Virus record (IMG/VR): IMGVR_UViG_3300042465_007039
Coordinates: 51,948 to 71,947 of that record
Direction: 5' to 3' (one strand)
DNA from: an uncultured virus (IMG/VR IMGVR_UViG_3300042465_007039)
Taxonomy: Duplodnaviria; Heunggongvirae; Uroviricota; Caudoviricetes
DNA length: 20,000 nucleotides
Shown: in pieces, positions 15,791 to 20,000 of the stretch
Numbering within the stretch: position 1 is the first letter of the stretch
Layout: each line of letters begins with the position of its first letter
The notes under the pieces: generated by a model
Seen by the model: only the letters and a program-made list of their open reading frames with translations
What the model was told of the DNA's origin: nothing
The model's database searches: none
Made by a program: the position numbers and the translations under genes

Positions 15791-16970
15791 TAAGACTGTA
15801 TGAAGTAGATAGAAAAGGATTCTGGACGCGGGTCCTTTTAAGCGGCATCGAAGTGTCGTCTGACATAAATACACTTATGTATTACTATGTCTATCAAATA
15901 ACAAACTTGTTGAACGACAAAATCTATGTCGGGAAACATAAATCTGCCAAACACCCTTCTGAAAACGAATATTACGGCTCTGGGAAACAAATAACAGCCG
16001 CTATTAAAAAATACGGTATAGAAAACTTCAAGAAAGAAGTCTTATACTACTGCTCGTCATTGGAAGAAATGGCAGACAAAGAAGCAGAAGTGGTCACTGA
16101 AGATTTTGTAAAAAGACCCAACACTTACAATATGCACAAAGGTGGTACAGGAGGATGGGATCACTACAACGGTAGCAAAGAACACAGTGCTAATTCACGC
16201 AAAGGCGGCGTAAAAGGCGCAAAACGATTGAACGATTTTATAGCAGAGCAAAAGTTCAACGACACAGAGTGGTGGCAAAATTGGCACAGCAAAGTAGTAG
16301 AATCCAACAGATCTAAAAATAATAATAGCTGGTTGAACATTTCTGAAGATGAAATGCAAAGAAGAAAAAAACAACAGAGTGAAAATGCGGTAGGCAATAA
16401 GAATAGTCAGTATGGCAAGATTTGGATTTCAAATATATTGACAAAAGAAGTAAAACGCATTACAATAAATGATACTATTCCACAAGGATGGGCAAGGGGC
16501 AAGAAAGGCCATGCTCCTACCAAACTTTGGGTAAATAATGGTGTTAAGGAGCATTATATCTTACTTGAAAAACAGCAAGAATATGTCCTTAAAGGTTTTA
16601 GTAGTGGCAGACTTAAATCAAGTATGTCGCGAACGAGTATGGTAGTTTAACGCTTTGATAGAAAGAAGTTCTGGACCCGGCTAGCATTATGCCGGCAGGT
16701 CCACCATAAACATTTTGTAACCATCGAAAGATGAGTCAAATACCATAAGGTTAGAATAAAAACGGCTCTAACTACAAAATGTTTTTGATGGGCTTGAAAA
16801 GATTCGACAGGGCAACAAGTATTGACAAGATCTACTCGGCAATGTAGAAGCCGTTAGGGTTGGAGTATTTCGGCCGTAGACACAAAAAAAGTAAAAGCAA
16901 ACGACTCACAGTTCGCATTGGCTGCTTGAAAAAGCAATCTAGGGTAAGACATACCTCGTAACAGAAACTC
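15791..16970 (+). ncRNA. ssrA: circularly permuted (two-piece) tmRNA, acceptor piece interrupted by an endonuclease gene
   Basis: Acceptor end CAGGTCC-A-CCA (16696-16706) lies upstream of the 5' end GGGCTTG-AAAAGATTCGAC (16790+), giving G3:U70; intervening segment closed by AAACATTTTGTA/TACAAAATGTTT; tag frame ANDSQFALAA* at 16897-16929. Outer ends approximate. Confidence 0.92.
15877..16650 (+). CDS. GIY-YIG (Seg-like) homing endonuclease
   Basis: YVYQITN...KIYVGKH...YYGSG...KYGIENFKKE...E...YN catalytic domain; C-terminal WISN/WVNNG...GW/GF..G repeats; A-rich; ATG 15877 preferred over GTG 15853. Confidence 0.9.
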   Translation: MYYYVYQITNLLNDKIYVGKHKSAKHPSENEYYGSGKQITAAIKKYGIENFKKEVLYYCSSLEEMADKEAEVVTEDFVKRPNTYNMHKGGTGGWDHYNGSKEHSANSRKGGVKGAKRLNDFIAEQKFNDTEWWQNWHSKVVESNRSKNNNSWLNISEDEMQRRKKQQSENAVGNKNSQYGKIWISNILTKEVKRITINDTIPQGWARGKKGHAPTKLWVNNGVKEHYILLEKQQEYVLKGFSSGRLKSSMSRTSMVV

Positions 16971-16996
16971 AGAACCCGCTTTGGCGGGTTTCTTTT
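16971..16996 (+). terminator. intrinsic terminator of tmRNA
   Basis: AACCCGC-TTTG-GCGGGTT then TCTTTT. Confidence 0.85.
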
Positions 16997-18366: not shown

Positions 18367-18465
18367 ATGATGATGCAAACTGTACTCACACTCAATCTAA
18401 TACCAACCAGCCCAGAGCTGGCCTATGAGAGCGATTGTCTTCAGGGTCTTTGCCGGTGTAGTTAA
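18367..18465 (+). CDS. putative leaderless leader peptide (32 aa)
   Basis: MMMQTVLTLNLIPTSPELAYESDCLQGLCRCS*; overlaps the 5' strand of the antiterminator. Confidence 0.5.
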   Translation: MMMQTVLTLNLIPTSPELAYESDCLQGLCRCS

Positions 18466-18512
18466 CAAAAGTACTGCATTCACAAAGACCCGCTAACTAG
18501 GCGGGTTTTTTT
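18444..18512 (+). terminator. intrinsic terminator with overlapping antiterminator (attenuator)
   Basis: Terminator ACCCGC-TAACTAG-GCGGGT-T6; competing helix GGGTCTTTG(18444-52)/CAAAGACCC(18483-91). Confidence 0.75.
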
Positions 18513-18522
18513 ATGGCGCTGG

Positions 18523-18551
18523 TAGACACAAAATCGCACCAGTGCTATAAT
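18523..18551 (+). promoter_or_regulatory. sigma70 promoter P2 of RNA array
   Basis: TAGACA-17 bp-TATAAT with extended TG. Confidence 0.75.
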
Positions 18552-18564
18552 ACACACATAACAG

Positions 18565-18606
18565 CAGCAAACGATCGAGTAGCTGAGTAGAATTCTTTAA
18601 AAATTT
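18565..18606 (+). promoter_or_regulatory. rrn-like boxB/boxA antitermination signal
   Basis: Short CAGC/GCTG hairpin followed by TTCTTTAAAAATTT, similar to rrn boxA GCTCTTTAACAATTT. Confidence 0.5.
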
Positions 18607-18636
18607 ACTGATATTTTTTCTTGCTACGGCAAGAAA

Positions 18637-18768
18637 TTATATTGAAACACATTTTCAATCTGAATTGACAGATACAAACAACCAAGGGGATCCGCTGGAC
18701 TTGAGCCAGGTGCATTCTGAATTGACAGAAATAAGGTTGTAAGGAGAGCCGAGTGTGTTTCAATATAA
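18637..18768 (+). ncRNA. unidentified structured RNA with twin hairpins
   Basis: 15-bp closing stem TTATATTGAAACACA/TGTGTTTCAATATAA; two copies of TCTG-AATTGA-CAGA; ACAACC/GGTTGT inner stem. Confidence 0.6.
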
Positions 18769-18775
18769 CAAATTT

Positions 18776-18850
18776 GGAGCATTCGTCTATCGGTTAGGAC
18801 AGTGGGTTTTCAGTCCACTAAGAGCGGTTCGACTCCGCTATGCTCTACCA
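18776..18850 (+). tRNA. tRNA-Glu(TTC)
   Basis: GGAGCAT/ATGCTCT, GTGGG-TTTTCAG-TCCAC, TTCGACT, CCA. Confidence 0.92.
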
Positions 18851-18855
18851 AAGTT

Positions 18856-18954
18856 TTGCACCTGGCGTAATGGAAGCGTTACAGGTTAGTATCGAAAGAT
18901 ATACCCGAGAGGCGATGCGGGGGGTGCAGGGTTCGATTCCCTGCGGTGCAATCA
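18856..18954 (+). ncRNA. tRNA-like RNA without canonical anticodon arm
   Basis: TTGCACC/GGTGCAA stem, D-loop-like TAATGGAA, T-arm CAGGG-TTCGATT-CCCTG; middle replaced by GAAA/GAGA tetraloop hairpins; ends TCA. Confidence 0.65.
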
Positions 18955-18960
18955 AGTTTA

Positions 18961-19046
18961 GGACAGTTGGCCGAGTGGTTGAAGGCGACGGACTGTAAAT
19001 CCGTTCTGTAAAAAGCGCAGTGGTTCAAATCCATTACTGTCCACCA
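18961..19046 (+). tRNA. tRNA-Tyr(GTA)
   Basis: GGACAGT/ACTGTCC, ACGGA-CTGTAAA-TCCGT, long variable arm, CCA. Confidence 0.95.
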
Positions 19047-19052
19047 AATTTA

Positions 19053-19127
19053 GGTGCGTTCATATAACGGTCATTATCCTGGATTGTCTATCCAGAGACG
19101 GGAGTTCGACTCTCCCACGCATCGCCA
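19053..19127 (+). tRNA. tRNA-Asp(GTC)
   Basis: GGTGCGT/ACGCATC, CTGGA-TTGTCTA-TCCAG, G73, CCA. Confidence 0.92.
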
Positions 19128-19134
19128 AGTTTTT

Positions 19135-19211
19135 GCCCCGGTGACGGAATTGGTATACGTGTTGGTCTTAGAAACCAAATTTTAGGAGTTCGAGTCTCCT
19201 CTGGGGCACCA
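19135..19211 (+). tRNA. tRNA-Leu(TAG), short variable loop
   Basis: GCCCCGG/CTGGGGC, TTGGT-CTTAGAA-ACCAA, 5-nt variable loop, CCA. Confidence 0.9.
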
Positions 19212-19276
19212 AGTTTAAGAGTTCGTCTAGAAACCGGTAAATTGTAGTTTGGTCTACAAGCTCTTGATTAGTTTAT

Positions 19277-19369
19277 GGCGTTATAGGATGTAACGGGGTG
19301 CGGTTTGCCTCAACCTTGAATGATCTTCAAGGTTTTCTTGCGTGGGTTCGAATCCCACATGATGCCCCA
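19277..19369 (+). ncRNA. tRNA-like RNA with His-type acceptor (G-1:C73)
   Basis: GGCGTTAT/ATGATGCC directly followed by CCA; T-arm GTGGG-TTCGAAT-CCCAC; non-canonical inner hairpins. Confidence 0.65.
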
Positions 19370-19374
19370 AGTTA

Positions 19375-19435
19375 TGCAGTTTTTGTCTGGAGTAATATTC
19401 CTGGACACGGATAAAAACAGAAATGTTCTGCGCCA
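19375..19435 (+). ncRNA. small CCA-ended structured RNA
   Basis: GCAG/CTGC-G-CCA, TTTTGTCTG/CGGATAAAA stem, ACA-GAAA-TGT hairpin. Confidence 0.45.
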
Positions 19436-19441
19436 AGTTAT

Positions 19442-19511
19442 GCCCTGGACTGTGTTGCGAGTCAGATTTGAAGCTGAACGTAGACAGGTTCAATTCCTGT
19501 TAGGGGCGCCA
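19442..19511 (+). ncRNA. degenerate tRNA or tRNA-like RNA (anticodon ambiguous, TTG/TGA)
   Basis: GCCCT/GGGGC-G-CCA, T-arm ACAGG-TTCAATT-CCTGT, TCAG-ATTTGAAG-CTGA arm with 8-nt loop, no canonical D-loop. Confidence 0.6.
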
Positions 19512-19514
19512 AGT

Positions 19515-19734
19515 TTTGTTAGAGTGTTAGCAAGAGAAAGTCACGCTGTCTAGGTTTCTTCGAAGAACCAAAGCAGTAGAAGGTGATGGGTTCGACACCC
19601 ACCCTGCGGGGAACTGCAGGGGTCCATTGAGGCGACTAAACTGGACCGGTATCCCAAGTAACTTACCGACTCCCGCTCGAGCTTGTTAATTCGGGTGAAT
19701 GGCAGCAATAACGTGGTGCTGCTACTTTAACAAA
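19515..19734 (+). ncRNA. unidentified multibranch structured RNA (about 220 nt)
   Basis: Closing stem TTTGTTAGAGT/ACTTTAACAAA, TTAGCAAG/CTTGTTAA, and at least five internal hairpins. Confidence 0.65.
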
Positions 19735-19740
19735 TTCAAC

Positions 19741-19933
19741 GTTCTGTCTAATCAACAGATACTGTGACCCGCAGGATGAGAAGTGCTGTGATAAGCAAGG
19801 GTGGTTCTAGTCCTACCGAACTAGCGTTAGCAATACGAGAACGGTCCCTGTCGGGAAGCGGGTGGAAGGTGCTGTGATATGCGGAGAAATCCAAGAGTTG
19901 ATGCACTACAATTACCGCCGGGGGATGCAGAGC
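19741..19933 (+). ncRNA. unidentified pseudoknotted structured RNA (about 190 nt)
   Basis: Closing GTTCTG/CAGAGC; ACCCGC/GCGGGT long-range pairing; TCCCTG.CGG/CCG.CGGGGG helix. Confidence 0.55.
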
Positions 19934-20000
19934 ATTTTTAAGTACATACCCTACGCCTACTTGGAATAGGAGATAGTGTCCATAGCACTGAAGAAAGGTT

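Follow-up and report, generated by a model that had tools for sequence, protein, structure and literature searches.

A conserved structured RNA of about 225 nucleotides within the tRNA arrays of uncultured lake jumbo phages

What kind of RNA, if any, is specified by 220 nt that lie among phage tRNA genes and are not themselves called as a tRNA? The window analyzed here is a 20,000-nt stretch of DNA from an uncultured virus of the Caudoviricetes (IMG/VR record IMGVR_UViG_3300042465_007039, positions 51,948 to 71,947). It is the final 20 kb of a 71,947-bp viral contig whose completeness is estimated at ∼20%; given that estimate, the contig is a jumbo-phage fragment. From ∼18,400 to the end of the window there are no convincing open reading frames, and the region is occupied by a tight array of tRNA genes. 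An initial annotation, made from the letters alone, had proposed that positions 19515-19734 form an unidentified multibranch RNA in a phage tRNA array, a setting like that of the large RNAs GOLLD and ROOL beside phage tRNAs. The sequence and coordinates of the stretch are as it described, and the element and its homologues do lie within tRNA arrays. Two outcomes had been named beforehand as speaking against it, a match to a described family and missing covariation; neither occurred, as no Rfam family matches the element and covariation is strong. The explanation that we favor, with moderate confidence, is that the element encodes a stable structured RNA of ∼225 nt that self-associates, mimics part of a tRNA and represents a new family of phage tRNA arrays.

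The element is a discrete, conserved module. Three related viral contigs, fetched with an exact 28-mer from the T-loop hairpin, cease matching the window at 19739, which is the true 3′ border. Two of them are 100% identical to the window over 18400-19739 and unrelated beyond. In the third (L003) the match is limited to 19503-19739, at 99%; the element stands directly behind a copy of tRNA-Leu(UAG), and spacer DNA elsewhere is 83% identical. The shared 3′ border and the different upstream tRNA in L003 thus indicate that a unit of about 19512-19739 moves as a module. A further copy (L010) is 91% identical and is missing exactly the CCTGCGG-GGAA-CTGCAGG hairpin. Neighbors of the element vary freely from phage to phage: it directly follows the ...CCAAGUUU of a complete tRNA 3′ end and has unrelated units after it, and a few family members sit behind AT-rich sequence that is not tRNA. 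A conserved AAUUCAA closes the element before the next unit, and the commonest 3′ ends in the family are ...ACAAAUUCAA.

A search of a viral collection with a two-motif pattern found 103 stretches. About three quarters of these are true homologues, situated in tRNA arrays, and the rest are tRNA genes with group I introns. A calibrated covariance model, R1 (227 positions, 41 pairs), finds the window's element at 19511-19742 with 229.4 bits. It matches 75 of 75 chosen loci from viruses or metagenome-assembled genomes (MAGs) at E<1e-10, 52 of 80 metagenome loci (among the matches listed; at least 120 loci carry an 18-mer pattern) and 4 of 80 loci of a species-genome collection. The loci found by the 18-mer and rejected by R1 (76 of 80 in the genome collection, 28 of 80 in the metagenomes) are chance matches. 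The family comprises at least 113 distinct sequences, of which 108 are full-length, at 205-244 nt. Truncated copies occur at five loci (L147, L157, L229, L377 and L384; 30-69 bits). They keep only the first ∼45-75 nt, comprising the closing stem P1, the junction and, in whole or in part, the long hairpin described below; unrelated sequence or a tRNA follows, which suggests breakage by cassette insertion.

With R1, a single copy is detected in the contig of the window, and the five other records searched have one copy apiece; three of the five are 98-100% complete, with lengths of 167, 340 and 383 kb. The arrays hold ∼30 tRNAs. The carriers are uncultured lake jumbo phages, of 167-383 kb where complete. 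Fourteen DNA runs labelled as lake water, from 14 studies, each contain at least 59% of the sampled words of 18700-20000. By blastn, queries of 601 nt and 232 nt found nothing at 1e-5 among 50,697 deposited phage genomes; matches of 24-25 nt at E≤1 in T4-like baseplate genes were taken as chance. The four matches in the genome collection are on MAG contigs of 2.9-23.9 kb labelled Planctomycetia, cyanobacterium, Flavobacterium and Crocinitomicaceae. Assignment of a host from these labels was dropped, as they disagree with one another and mis-binning of phage DNA probably accounts for the contigs. Positions 1115-1221 of L089 were likewise rejected as a second relative: the nhmmer match (E = 5.7e-6) is mainly to the T-arm, and R1 aligns only 24 nt there, at 18.2 bits.

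Taken alone, the 220-nt stretch has a minimum free energy (MFE) of -75.5 kcal/mol with z = -2.66, and 3 of 200 shuffles are as stable, which is a modest signal. The comparative signal was counted on alignment A2, which holds 53 distinct homologues. The structure on A2 has 48 pairs in 10 helices and is 97.4% paired, versus 85.7% in shuffles. Changes on both sides are found at 30 pairs, against 17.0 ± 1.7 in shuffles (0 of 500 reach 30), and slid controls give 30-47% paired with 6-10 pairs changed on both sides. Columns 35-68 retain, in 52 of 53 sequences, a G-U pair that the opposite strand would render C-A, and columns 174-232 do so in 33 of 53; the folded strand is therefore the plus strand. 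In overview, P1 and P2 are followed by a purine-rich junction that does not vary; a long hairpin and a central domain come next, then a pseudoknot and two further helices, as listed here.

19512..19739, + strand: whole RNA cassette, from after the ...GCGCCAAG of the upstream tRNA-like unit to the conserved tail ...ACAAATTCAA
19515..19525 with 19724-19734, + strand: P1 closing stem; 9 pairs, 8 changed on both sides, 98.5% paired
19526..19529 with 19659-19662, + strand: P2, GUYA with URAC; columns 18/166 are U-A 24, C-G 21, U-G 7
19530..19539, + strand: purine-rich junction GCAAGAGAAA, invariant
19540..19542 with 19644-19646, + strand: GUC with GAC, closing the central multi-branch domain; an RNAalifold prediction
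19545..19577, + strand: long hairpin H4; 11 pairs, 8 changed on both sides, self-complementary apex UUCGAA
19587..19601, + strand: T-arm-like hairpin, 4-bp stem and UUCGACA loop; columns 79/93 are U-A 32, C-G 20
19602..19621, + strand: hairpin A, a stem with GGAA loop; variable, optional, cleanly deleted in L010
19622..19636, + strand: hairpin B, D-arm-like, GUC/GAC stem and GG-bearing loop; stem differs between subtypes
19644..19658, + strand: GAC and the conserved strand CNRGUAUYCCAAG; CUGGAC..GUAUYCCAAGURAC is found in 100 of 108 members
19666..19669 with the H9 loop 19714-19716, + strand: pseudoknot, 5′ strand CCGA; covarying
19672..19695 (19672-75 with 19692-95), + strand: helix H8, CCCG/CGGG; columns 181/208 are G-C 34, A-U 8, U-A 7
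19676..19681, + strand: palindrome CUCGAG at the start of the H8 loop; perfect, covarying
19702..19722 (19702-07 with 19717-22), + strand: last hairpin H9, GCAGCA/UGCUGC; 6 pairs, 5 changed on both sides
19724..19739, + strand: P1 3′ strand and conserved tail UUCAA

The pseudoknot engages the 3′ part of the H9 loop. Its columns 172/234 are C-G in 39 sequences and U-A in 12, columns 174/232 are G-U 33, U-G 7, C-G 5, A-U 3 and G-C 3, and whole strand sets interchange (ACCG/UGGU, UCCU/GGGA, CCAC/GUGG, CUGC/GCGG). The string GUYAGCAAGAGAAAGUCA, which spans the P2 5′ strand and the junction, is found in 107 of 108 full-length distinct members. The GUC/GAC helix is 98.7% paired yet almost invariant, so that covariation neither supports nor tests it. 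Much of what the initial annotation drew from the single sequence is recovered here: the outer stem 19515-25/19724-34, the GCTG/CAGT stem with GGTT/AACC tip (the long hairpin 19545-19577), the T-loop-like hairpin at 19587-19601 and the GGCAGCA/TGCTGCT hairpin are all conserved and covary in A2, and the purine-rich junction AAGAGAAAGTC is invariant in the family. The hairpin CCCTGCGG-GGAA-CTGCAGGG covaries also, but it is optional and variable and is the one cleanly missing in L010. The CCCG/CGGG pairing is conserved and covarying, although as a nested helix instead of the pseudoknot that had been suggested. Three further proposed stems (19527-34/19682-89, GTCCA/TGGAC and CGGTA/TACCG) are unconserved; together their 18 pairs are 76.1% paired versus 75.5% in shuffles, with 3 compensatory pairs versus 2.7 expected (322 of 500 shuffles reach this), and they behave like chance pairings particular to the window. 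The GACTAAA loop, too, is particular to the window and varies freely across the family.

No known family accounts for this RNA. The Rfam 15 library, which includes GOLLD, ROOL, RNase P, group I introns, tRNA, transfer-messenger RNA (tmRNA) and the self-cleaving ribozymes, gave nothing over the element at gathering score or at E≤10 in a search of the 1.3 kb from 18700 to 20000. A full-text literature search found no prior description of the family. PMC10690425 lists 10,006 candidate viral RNAs, and the portions of it consulted mention tRNA-like ones only generally; the core motif and two contig numbers have no match in the part of its supplements that was searched. Possibly the 8,495 unnamed IMG/VR candidates of that source include the family. 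With Rfam 15 and the literature as searched, the family is undescribed.

Between the long hairpin and the GAC strand the family displays, in order, a T-arm, a stem of 6-10 bp and a hairpin with GG in its loop. The T-arm has a 7-nt UUCRANY loop in 93 of 108 members, and its stem covaries. The capped stem has a loop that is mostly of GNRA type (GGAA, GCAA, GAAA), and this stem is at times missing. The GG-loop hairpin usually has a 4-bp stem. According to MFE parsing, GG occurs in the loop of 33 of 44 distinct domains. At least two hairpins are formed by 34 of the 44 distinct central domains. Stem subtypes of hairpin B include GUGC/GCAC, AUAC/GUAU, GCA/UGC and UAGA/UCUA. The order of the module is that of the T-arm, an acceptor-like stem and the D-arm of a circularly permuted tRNA. 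Neither a free CCA end nor a 7-nt anticodon loop is present, and the helix after the T-arm is capped or missing. No tRNA cloverleaf is detected over the element by ARAGORN or by the Rfam tRNA model (RF00005), and the window's 7 tRNAs all lie elsewhere.

The loop of H8 begins, in the window, with the palindrome CUCGAG. Palindromes of 12 kinds are found in 101 of the 108 members, among them UCCGGA, GCCGGC, CCCGGG, GUCGAC, GCCUAGGC and others. In alignment A3 (75 sequences with 30 distinct H8 loops) all 30 distinct loops hold a palindrome of at least 6 nt, 26 of these at the first loop position. The paired columns of the palindrome covary: 182-193 are C-G 18, G-C 16 and U-A 15, and 183-192 are C-G 33 and U-A 17. 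Such adjacent covarying pairs leave no room for a hairpin loop, and the simplest reading is therefore that the loop pairs with its counterpart on another copy. In one subtype the whole domain is exchanged, yet a hexamer palindrome, GCUAGC, is again found within it, where it probably lies in a hairpin loop. The apex of H4, UUCGAA, is self-complementary as well, but it is invariant (106 of 108), so that covariation gives no test of it. An intramolecular partner for the palindrome in the H4 apex was considered and rejected: only UCGA is common to it and the CUCGAG and GUCGAC types, and nothing is shared with the CCGG types.

Environmental RNA libraries contain family members, and these show a fixed 5′ end at G19530. 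Contigs of four out of four metatranscriptome runs, from four studies (three labelled lake or freshwater, one marine), align to the element at 88% identity or more. Contig depths summed over the element are in the hundreds to thousands, and the RNA appears to be abundant in lake RNA samples; the depths were not used for ranking the element against the tRNAs. An Illumina adapter is joined directly before G19530 in two contigs of run X15 and one of run X17. Very many short cDNAs must therefore terminate exactly at G19530, where the 5′ strand of P2 gives way to the invariant junction. A minor adapter-joined end stands before 19534 (one contig of X17). G19530 is either a real RNA 5′ end or a hard stop for reverse transcriptase, and it could arise from a host RNase, self-cleavage, a branch or a modified base. 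An RNA contig of low depth extends from the element into the next unit (19671-19902). Joints such as 18847→19509 represent array variants in relatives. A circular or permuted-intron product was rejected: no back-joined form was seen inside the element, in four contig-only runs that carry little weight on this point.

The 5′ junction AAGAGAAAGUC-ACGCU is nearly identical to the S element and P9.0 of group I introns in phage tRNA genes. Of the pattern loci outside the family, 11 were submitted to Rfam and four (L020, L021, L071 and L107) carry a group I intron, at 55-66 bits; the others, judging from their sequences, look like intron-bearing tRNA genes of the same kind. Across the family AAGAGAAAGUC does not vary, and it is the same as the S element (J8/7 and the 3′ strand of P7) of the Rfam-confirmed introns, and with the tRNA introns of L107 and L043 the near-identity of AAGAGAAAGUC-ACGCUAU.UAG extends through S and P9.0 to the start of P9. 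The 10-nt core of this shared string was part of the search pattern, so that independent evidence is limited to the flanking ∼9 nt. By nhmmer, family positions 20-97 align to L107 with E = 2.8e-5, and the family T-arm stands ∼45-58 nt downstream of the junction, as in an intron 3′ exon. Q-like (AAUCCCG..GAGC) and P-like (AAUUCGGGUGAA) strings pair to form H8. The 5′ third of the element was probably recruited from a tRNA group I intron, to judge from these strings.

The element is nonetheless not a group I intron, as the S-like strand lacks its R partner. P7 in the intron loci is made by the S element AAGAGAAAGUCC and its R partner GACUUU; just 2 of 108 full-length members contain GACUUU, hence there is no P7 guanosine-binding helix, and the only pairing of GUC is the 3 bp with an invariant GAC. 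The P and Q order is reversed, the Q-like string (19670-19681) standing before the P-like one (19688-19699), and the two form one short helix closing a 16-nt loop. No P1 or internal guide sequence can be placed on reading the sequence, and P2, P3 and P5 are also missing; the element lies between genes, not within one, and the intron model Intron_gpI (RF00028) has no match in a cmscan of 18700-20000 at E≤10. The group I flavor perceived in the initial annotation survives in part: the junction AAGAGAAAGTC is the same string as the S element of tRNA introns in other viral contigs, but GACTAAA as a P7 5′ strand is unconserved. The observation that neither a group I nor an RNase P fold can be built also stands. 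A K-turn or 11-nt receptor in the junction was dropped, as by eye the junction does not seem to fit either consensus. Separately, an abiF RNA motif (45-54 bits) is found at L021:1273-1534, and likewise in L020 and L071, ∼30 nt upstream of the intron-interrupted tRNA gene.

It is hypothesized that the element is transcribed with the tRNAs and would be excised by tRNA-processing enzymes. The central domain, with its T-arm, capped stem and GG-bearing D-arm-like hairpin, would then form an unchargeable look-alike of the tRNA elbow. The H8 loop palindrome, and perhaps the H4 apex UUCGAA, would pair with the same loop of a second copy, so that the RNA may work as a dimer or as a larger RNA assembly. 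Such an assembly might offer tRNA-like elbows to phage or host factors that handle tRNA, as a decoy or a scaffold. Of these steps, only a stable RNA cut from a tRNA precursor has direct support. Several observations weigh against the proposal. The tRNA-like module is missing or replaced in 15 of 108 members and hairpin A is optional; because some members lack the module, it cannot be a universal core. Palindromes of 6 nt arise by chance in ∼8-42% of single-loop shuffles (15-84 of 200, depending on the loop), and since chance palindromes in single loops are common, the argument rests on recurrence across the family together with covariation. For dimerization, the covariation of the palindrome is indirect evidence. 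The RNA evidence consists of assembled contigs, whose depths cannot rank genes, and DNA carry-over is possible. The putative role as decoy or scaffold is suggested by context, and the most conserved parts (GCAAGAGAAAGUCAC and CUGGAC..GUAUYCCAAGU) are given no role by the proposal.

The intron-like junction raises an alternative, which we regard as unlikely, that the element descends from a tRNA group I intron and acts as a ribozyme, in which the retained S/J8/7-like strand, as part of an active site, would cleave or branch the RNA's own chain at A19529/G19530, perhaps as a dimer. The near-identity of AAGAGAAAGUC-ACGCUAU.UAG to the L107 and L043 introns, the nhmmer alignment to L107 (E = 2.8e-5), the Q-like and P-like strings that form H8 and the location of the most conserved nucleotides in the junction strands all agree with such an origin, and the 5′ end fixed at G19530, joined by a second stop at 19534, exactly where the junction begins and seen in two studies, would be its product. 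However, Rfam detects no group I intron at E≤10, just 2 of 108 members have the R partner GACUUU, which leaves no P7 guanosine site, the P-like and Q-like strings are in reversed order, and the element is intergenic and has no P1 or internal guide sequence that can be found; moreover, the 10-nt core of the shared string came from the search pattern itself, and a host RNase could equally have produced the 5′ end, as could a modified base at which reverse transcriptase halts. Known self-cleaving classes do not match either (hammerhead, twister, twister-sister, pistol, hatchet and HDV-like, none at E≤10). The bolder version, a new class of ribozyme built from a tRNA and its group I intron, with a J8/7-like active center, a palindrome-linked dimer and a self-made break or branch at A19529/G19530, we consider improbable, though a self-made break there would explain both the fixed end at 19530 and the stop four bases on. 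The stop at 19534 might then stem from a very small lariat cap, as in the GIR1 ribozyme.

About as improbable is a structural spacer acting in cis on the polycistronic tRNA precursor, as an insulator of folding or a landing pad for nucleases; it would assist the correct processing or the stability of neighboring tRNAs and have no further role once released. The element is indeed embedded in tRNA arrays behind ...CCAAGUUU with a conserved AAUUCAA at its end, and a tRNA-like elbow might serve to attract RNase P or RNase Z. A spacer is nevertheless hard to reconcile with one copy per genome against ∼30 tRNAs per array, with neighbors that differ freely between phages and with the few members behind AT-rich non-tRNA sequence; a pseudoknot, a covarying palindrome and ∼40 invariant junction nucleotides exceed what a spacer needs, and the depth of element contigs in RNA libraries suggests persistence. 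A drastically reduced RNase P-like RNA, supplied by the phage for its own tRNA array, is highly unlikely. The string AGAGAAAGUC resembles the CR-I motif GAGGAAAGUCC and GGGUGAAUGG loosely resembles CR-IV, and a search with RF00010 found type A RNase P RNA in none of six records (the window's own contig and five that bear the family). The CR-I resemblance, which the initial annotation had pointed out, goes no further: none of the Rfam RNase P models, of any type, matches at E≤10; GUC pairs with GAC 19644-19646 in a local, nested helix, with no P4-type CR-I/CR-V pseudoknot to a strand beside P1, and the strand before the P1 3′ strand is instead a local, strongly covarying hairpin. Equivalents of P2, P3 and P15 are lacking, and host RNase P suffices for all known phages. 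Finally, a functionless relic, or pseudogene, of an intron-bearing tRNA gene would combine intron-like and tRNA-like pieces as seen here and could leave truncated copies such as those in L147, L157, L229, L377 and L384. This is scarcely credible in view of the 30 compensatory pairs, and covariation argues strongly against it; the element is, in addition, 99% identical between phages whose neighboring spacer is 83% identical, is kept as a single copy in complete genomes of 167-383 kb and is represented in four RNA libraries.

Stable RNAs of unexplained role have long been recognized in phage tRNA clusters; C and D of phage T4 are examples, and GOLLD and ROOL came later. The two T4 RNAs (species 1 and 2, rnaC/rnaD) are small, ∼120-140 nt, and are co-transcribed and co-processed with tRNAs in the T4 tRNA cluster; they are not known to have palindromic loops or a pseudoknot. 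The tRNA-cluster setting is the same as that of the present family, but there is no sequence relationship (by blastn, only chance matches of 24-25 nt). Other tRNA mimics include the tRNA-like domains of the bacterial Y RNA YrlA and of tmRNA. As in these and in tRNA itself, the family has a T-arm with a UUCRANY loop, a GG-loop hairpin able to dock with it and a helix able to stack; unlike them, it has a permuted order (T-arm, capped stem, D-like hairpin), no free CCA and no anticodon loop. Loop-loop dimerization signals include the palindromic loop of the retroviral dimerization initiation site (DIS) and the intermolecular loops of phi29 pRNA. The family likewise displays a self-complementary hexamer in a loop, whose sequence drifts while self-complementarity is kept; the biological setting is different and the RNAs are unrelated, and pairing in trans is proposed for the family from its sequences. 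With the group I introns of tRNA genes the family shares the S, P9.0 and P9-start match and the pairing of P-like and Q-like strings, and it differs from them in R, P7, P1-P3, P5, the order of P and Q and location.

ROOL and GOLLD, and T4 RNAs C and D, are the closest analogues in setting and possibly in behavior. In PMC12286853, ROOL and GOLLD are described as encoded by phages or prophages, often by tRNA islands, with complex, covarying, pseudoknotted folds and no known protein partner or function. They are RNAs of 580 to >800 nt that form cages of 8 to 14 subunits, homo-oligomers held together by kissing loops, and some of these contacts were first seen as covariation only (PMC12286853). 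The present family is similarly phage-encoded beside tRNA genes and has a covarying fold with a pseudoknot. Unlike ROOL and GOLLD, it measures 205-244 nt and shows no similarity in sequence or model; it has a tRNA-elbow-like module and a group I S-like junction, and its self-association is suggested by the palindrome.

The family is a compact (225-nt), well-supported, widespread and easily studied addition to the stable RNAs of tRNA clusters. Its useful traits are a fold defined by covariation, apparent abundance in lake RNA and a candidate dimerization signal that can be tested with mutants, and the tRNA-elbow module points to tRNA-handling factors as targets. The joining of a group I intron strand with tRNA arms would be an instance of RNA evolution by recombination of parts. 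Should the end at G19530 prove to be self-made, this would be a new ribozyme class. The calibrated model and the 113-sequence alignment are ready for Rfam-style curation and structural work.

Other features of the array were also observed. ARAGORN identifies 7 tRNAs in the window, and Rfam gives the same 7 plus a permuted tmRNA. Array units are spaced by ...CCA-AGUUU. A promoter-like site at 18523-18551 matches at 11 of 12 positions, and no terminator-like site was found downstream of it. Four units (18857-18945, 19218-19370, 19376-19428 and 19431-19511) have tRNA-like ends, consisting of a T-arm, a 3′ strand and CCA or a CCA-like sequence followed by AGUU, and are not called by ARAGORN or the Rfam tRNA model; they may be tRNAs with insertions or tRNA look-alikes. 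The tmRNA gene, at 16585-16976, is two-piece and of alpha type (84.9 bits to tmRNA_permuted), and ARAGORN reads its tag peptide in the relative L008 as ANDSQFALAA. An open reading frame at 15853-16650 has a SegE-type GIY-YIG endonuclease domain (E = 5e-7) and ends within the first part of the tmRNA gene. Such a homing endonuclease next to the RNA array might account in part for the shuffling of cassettes between relatives.

The unit that follows the element, 19740-20000, runs off the contig end and is another conserved non-coding cassette, with no Rfam match. It is also found 3′ of the element in L010 and L039, where the differences seem compensatory, and in one RNA contig it stands directly behind a different tRNA end. 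Contigs of the RNA libraries are deep over 19800-19887 of this unit. In L002 (3165-3324), and also in L003 and L004, the place after the element is taken by a different unit of ∼190 nt, closed by a perfect 21-nt inverted repeat. A tRNA-like gene comes next, which ARAGORN calls tRNA-Ile(UAU) in L007.

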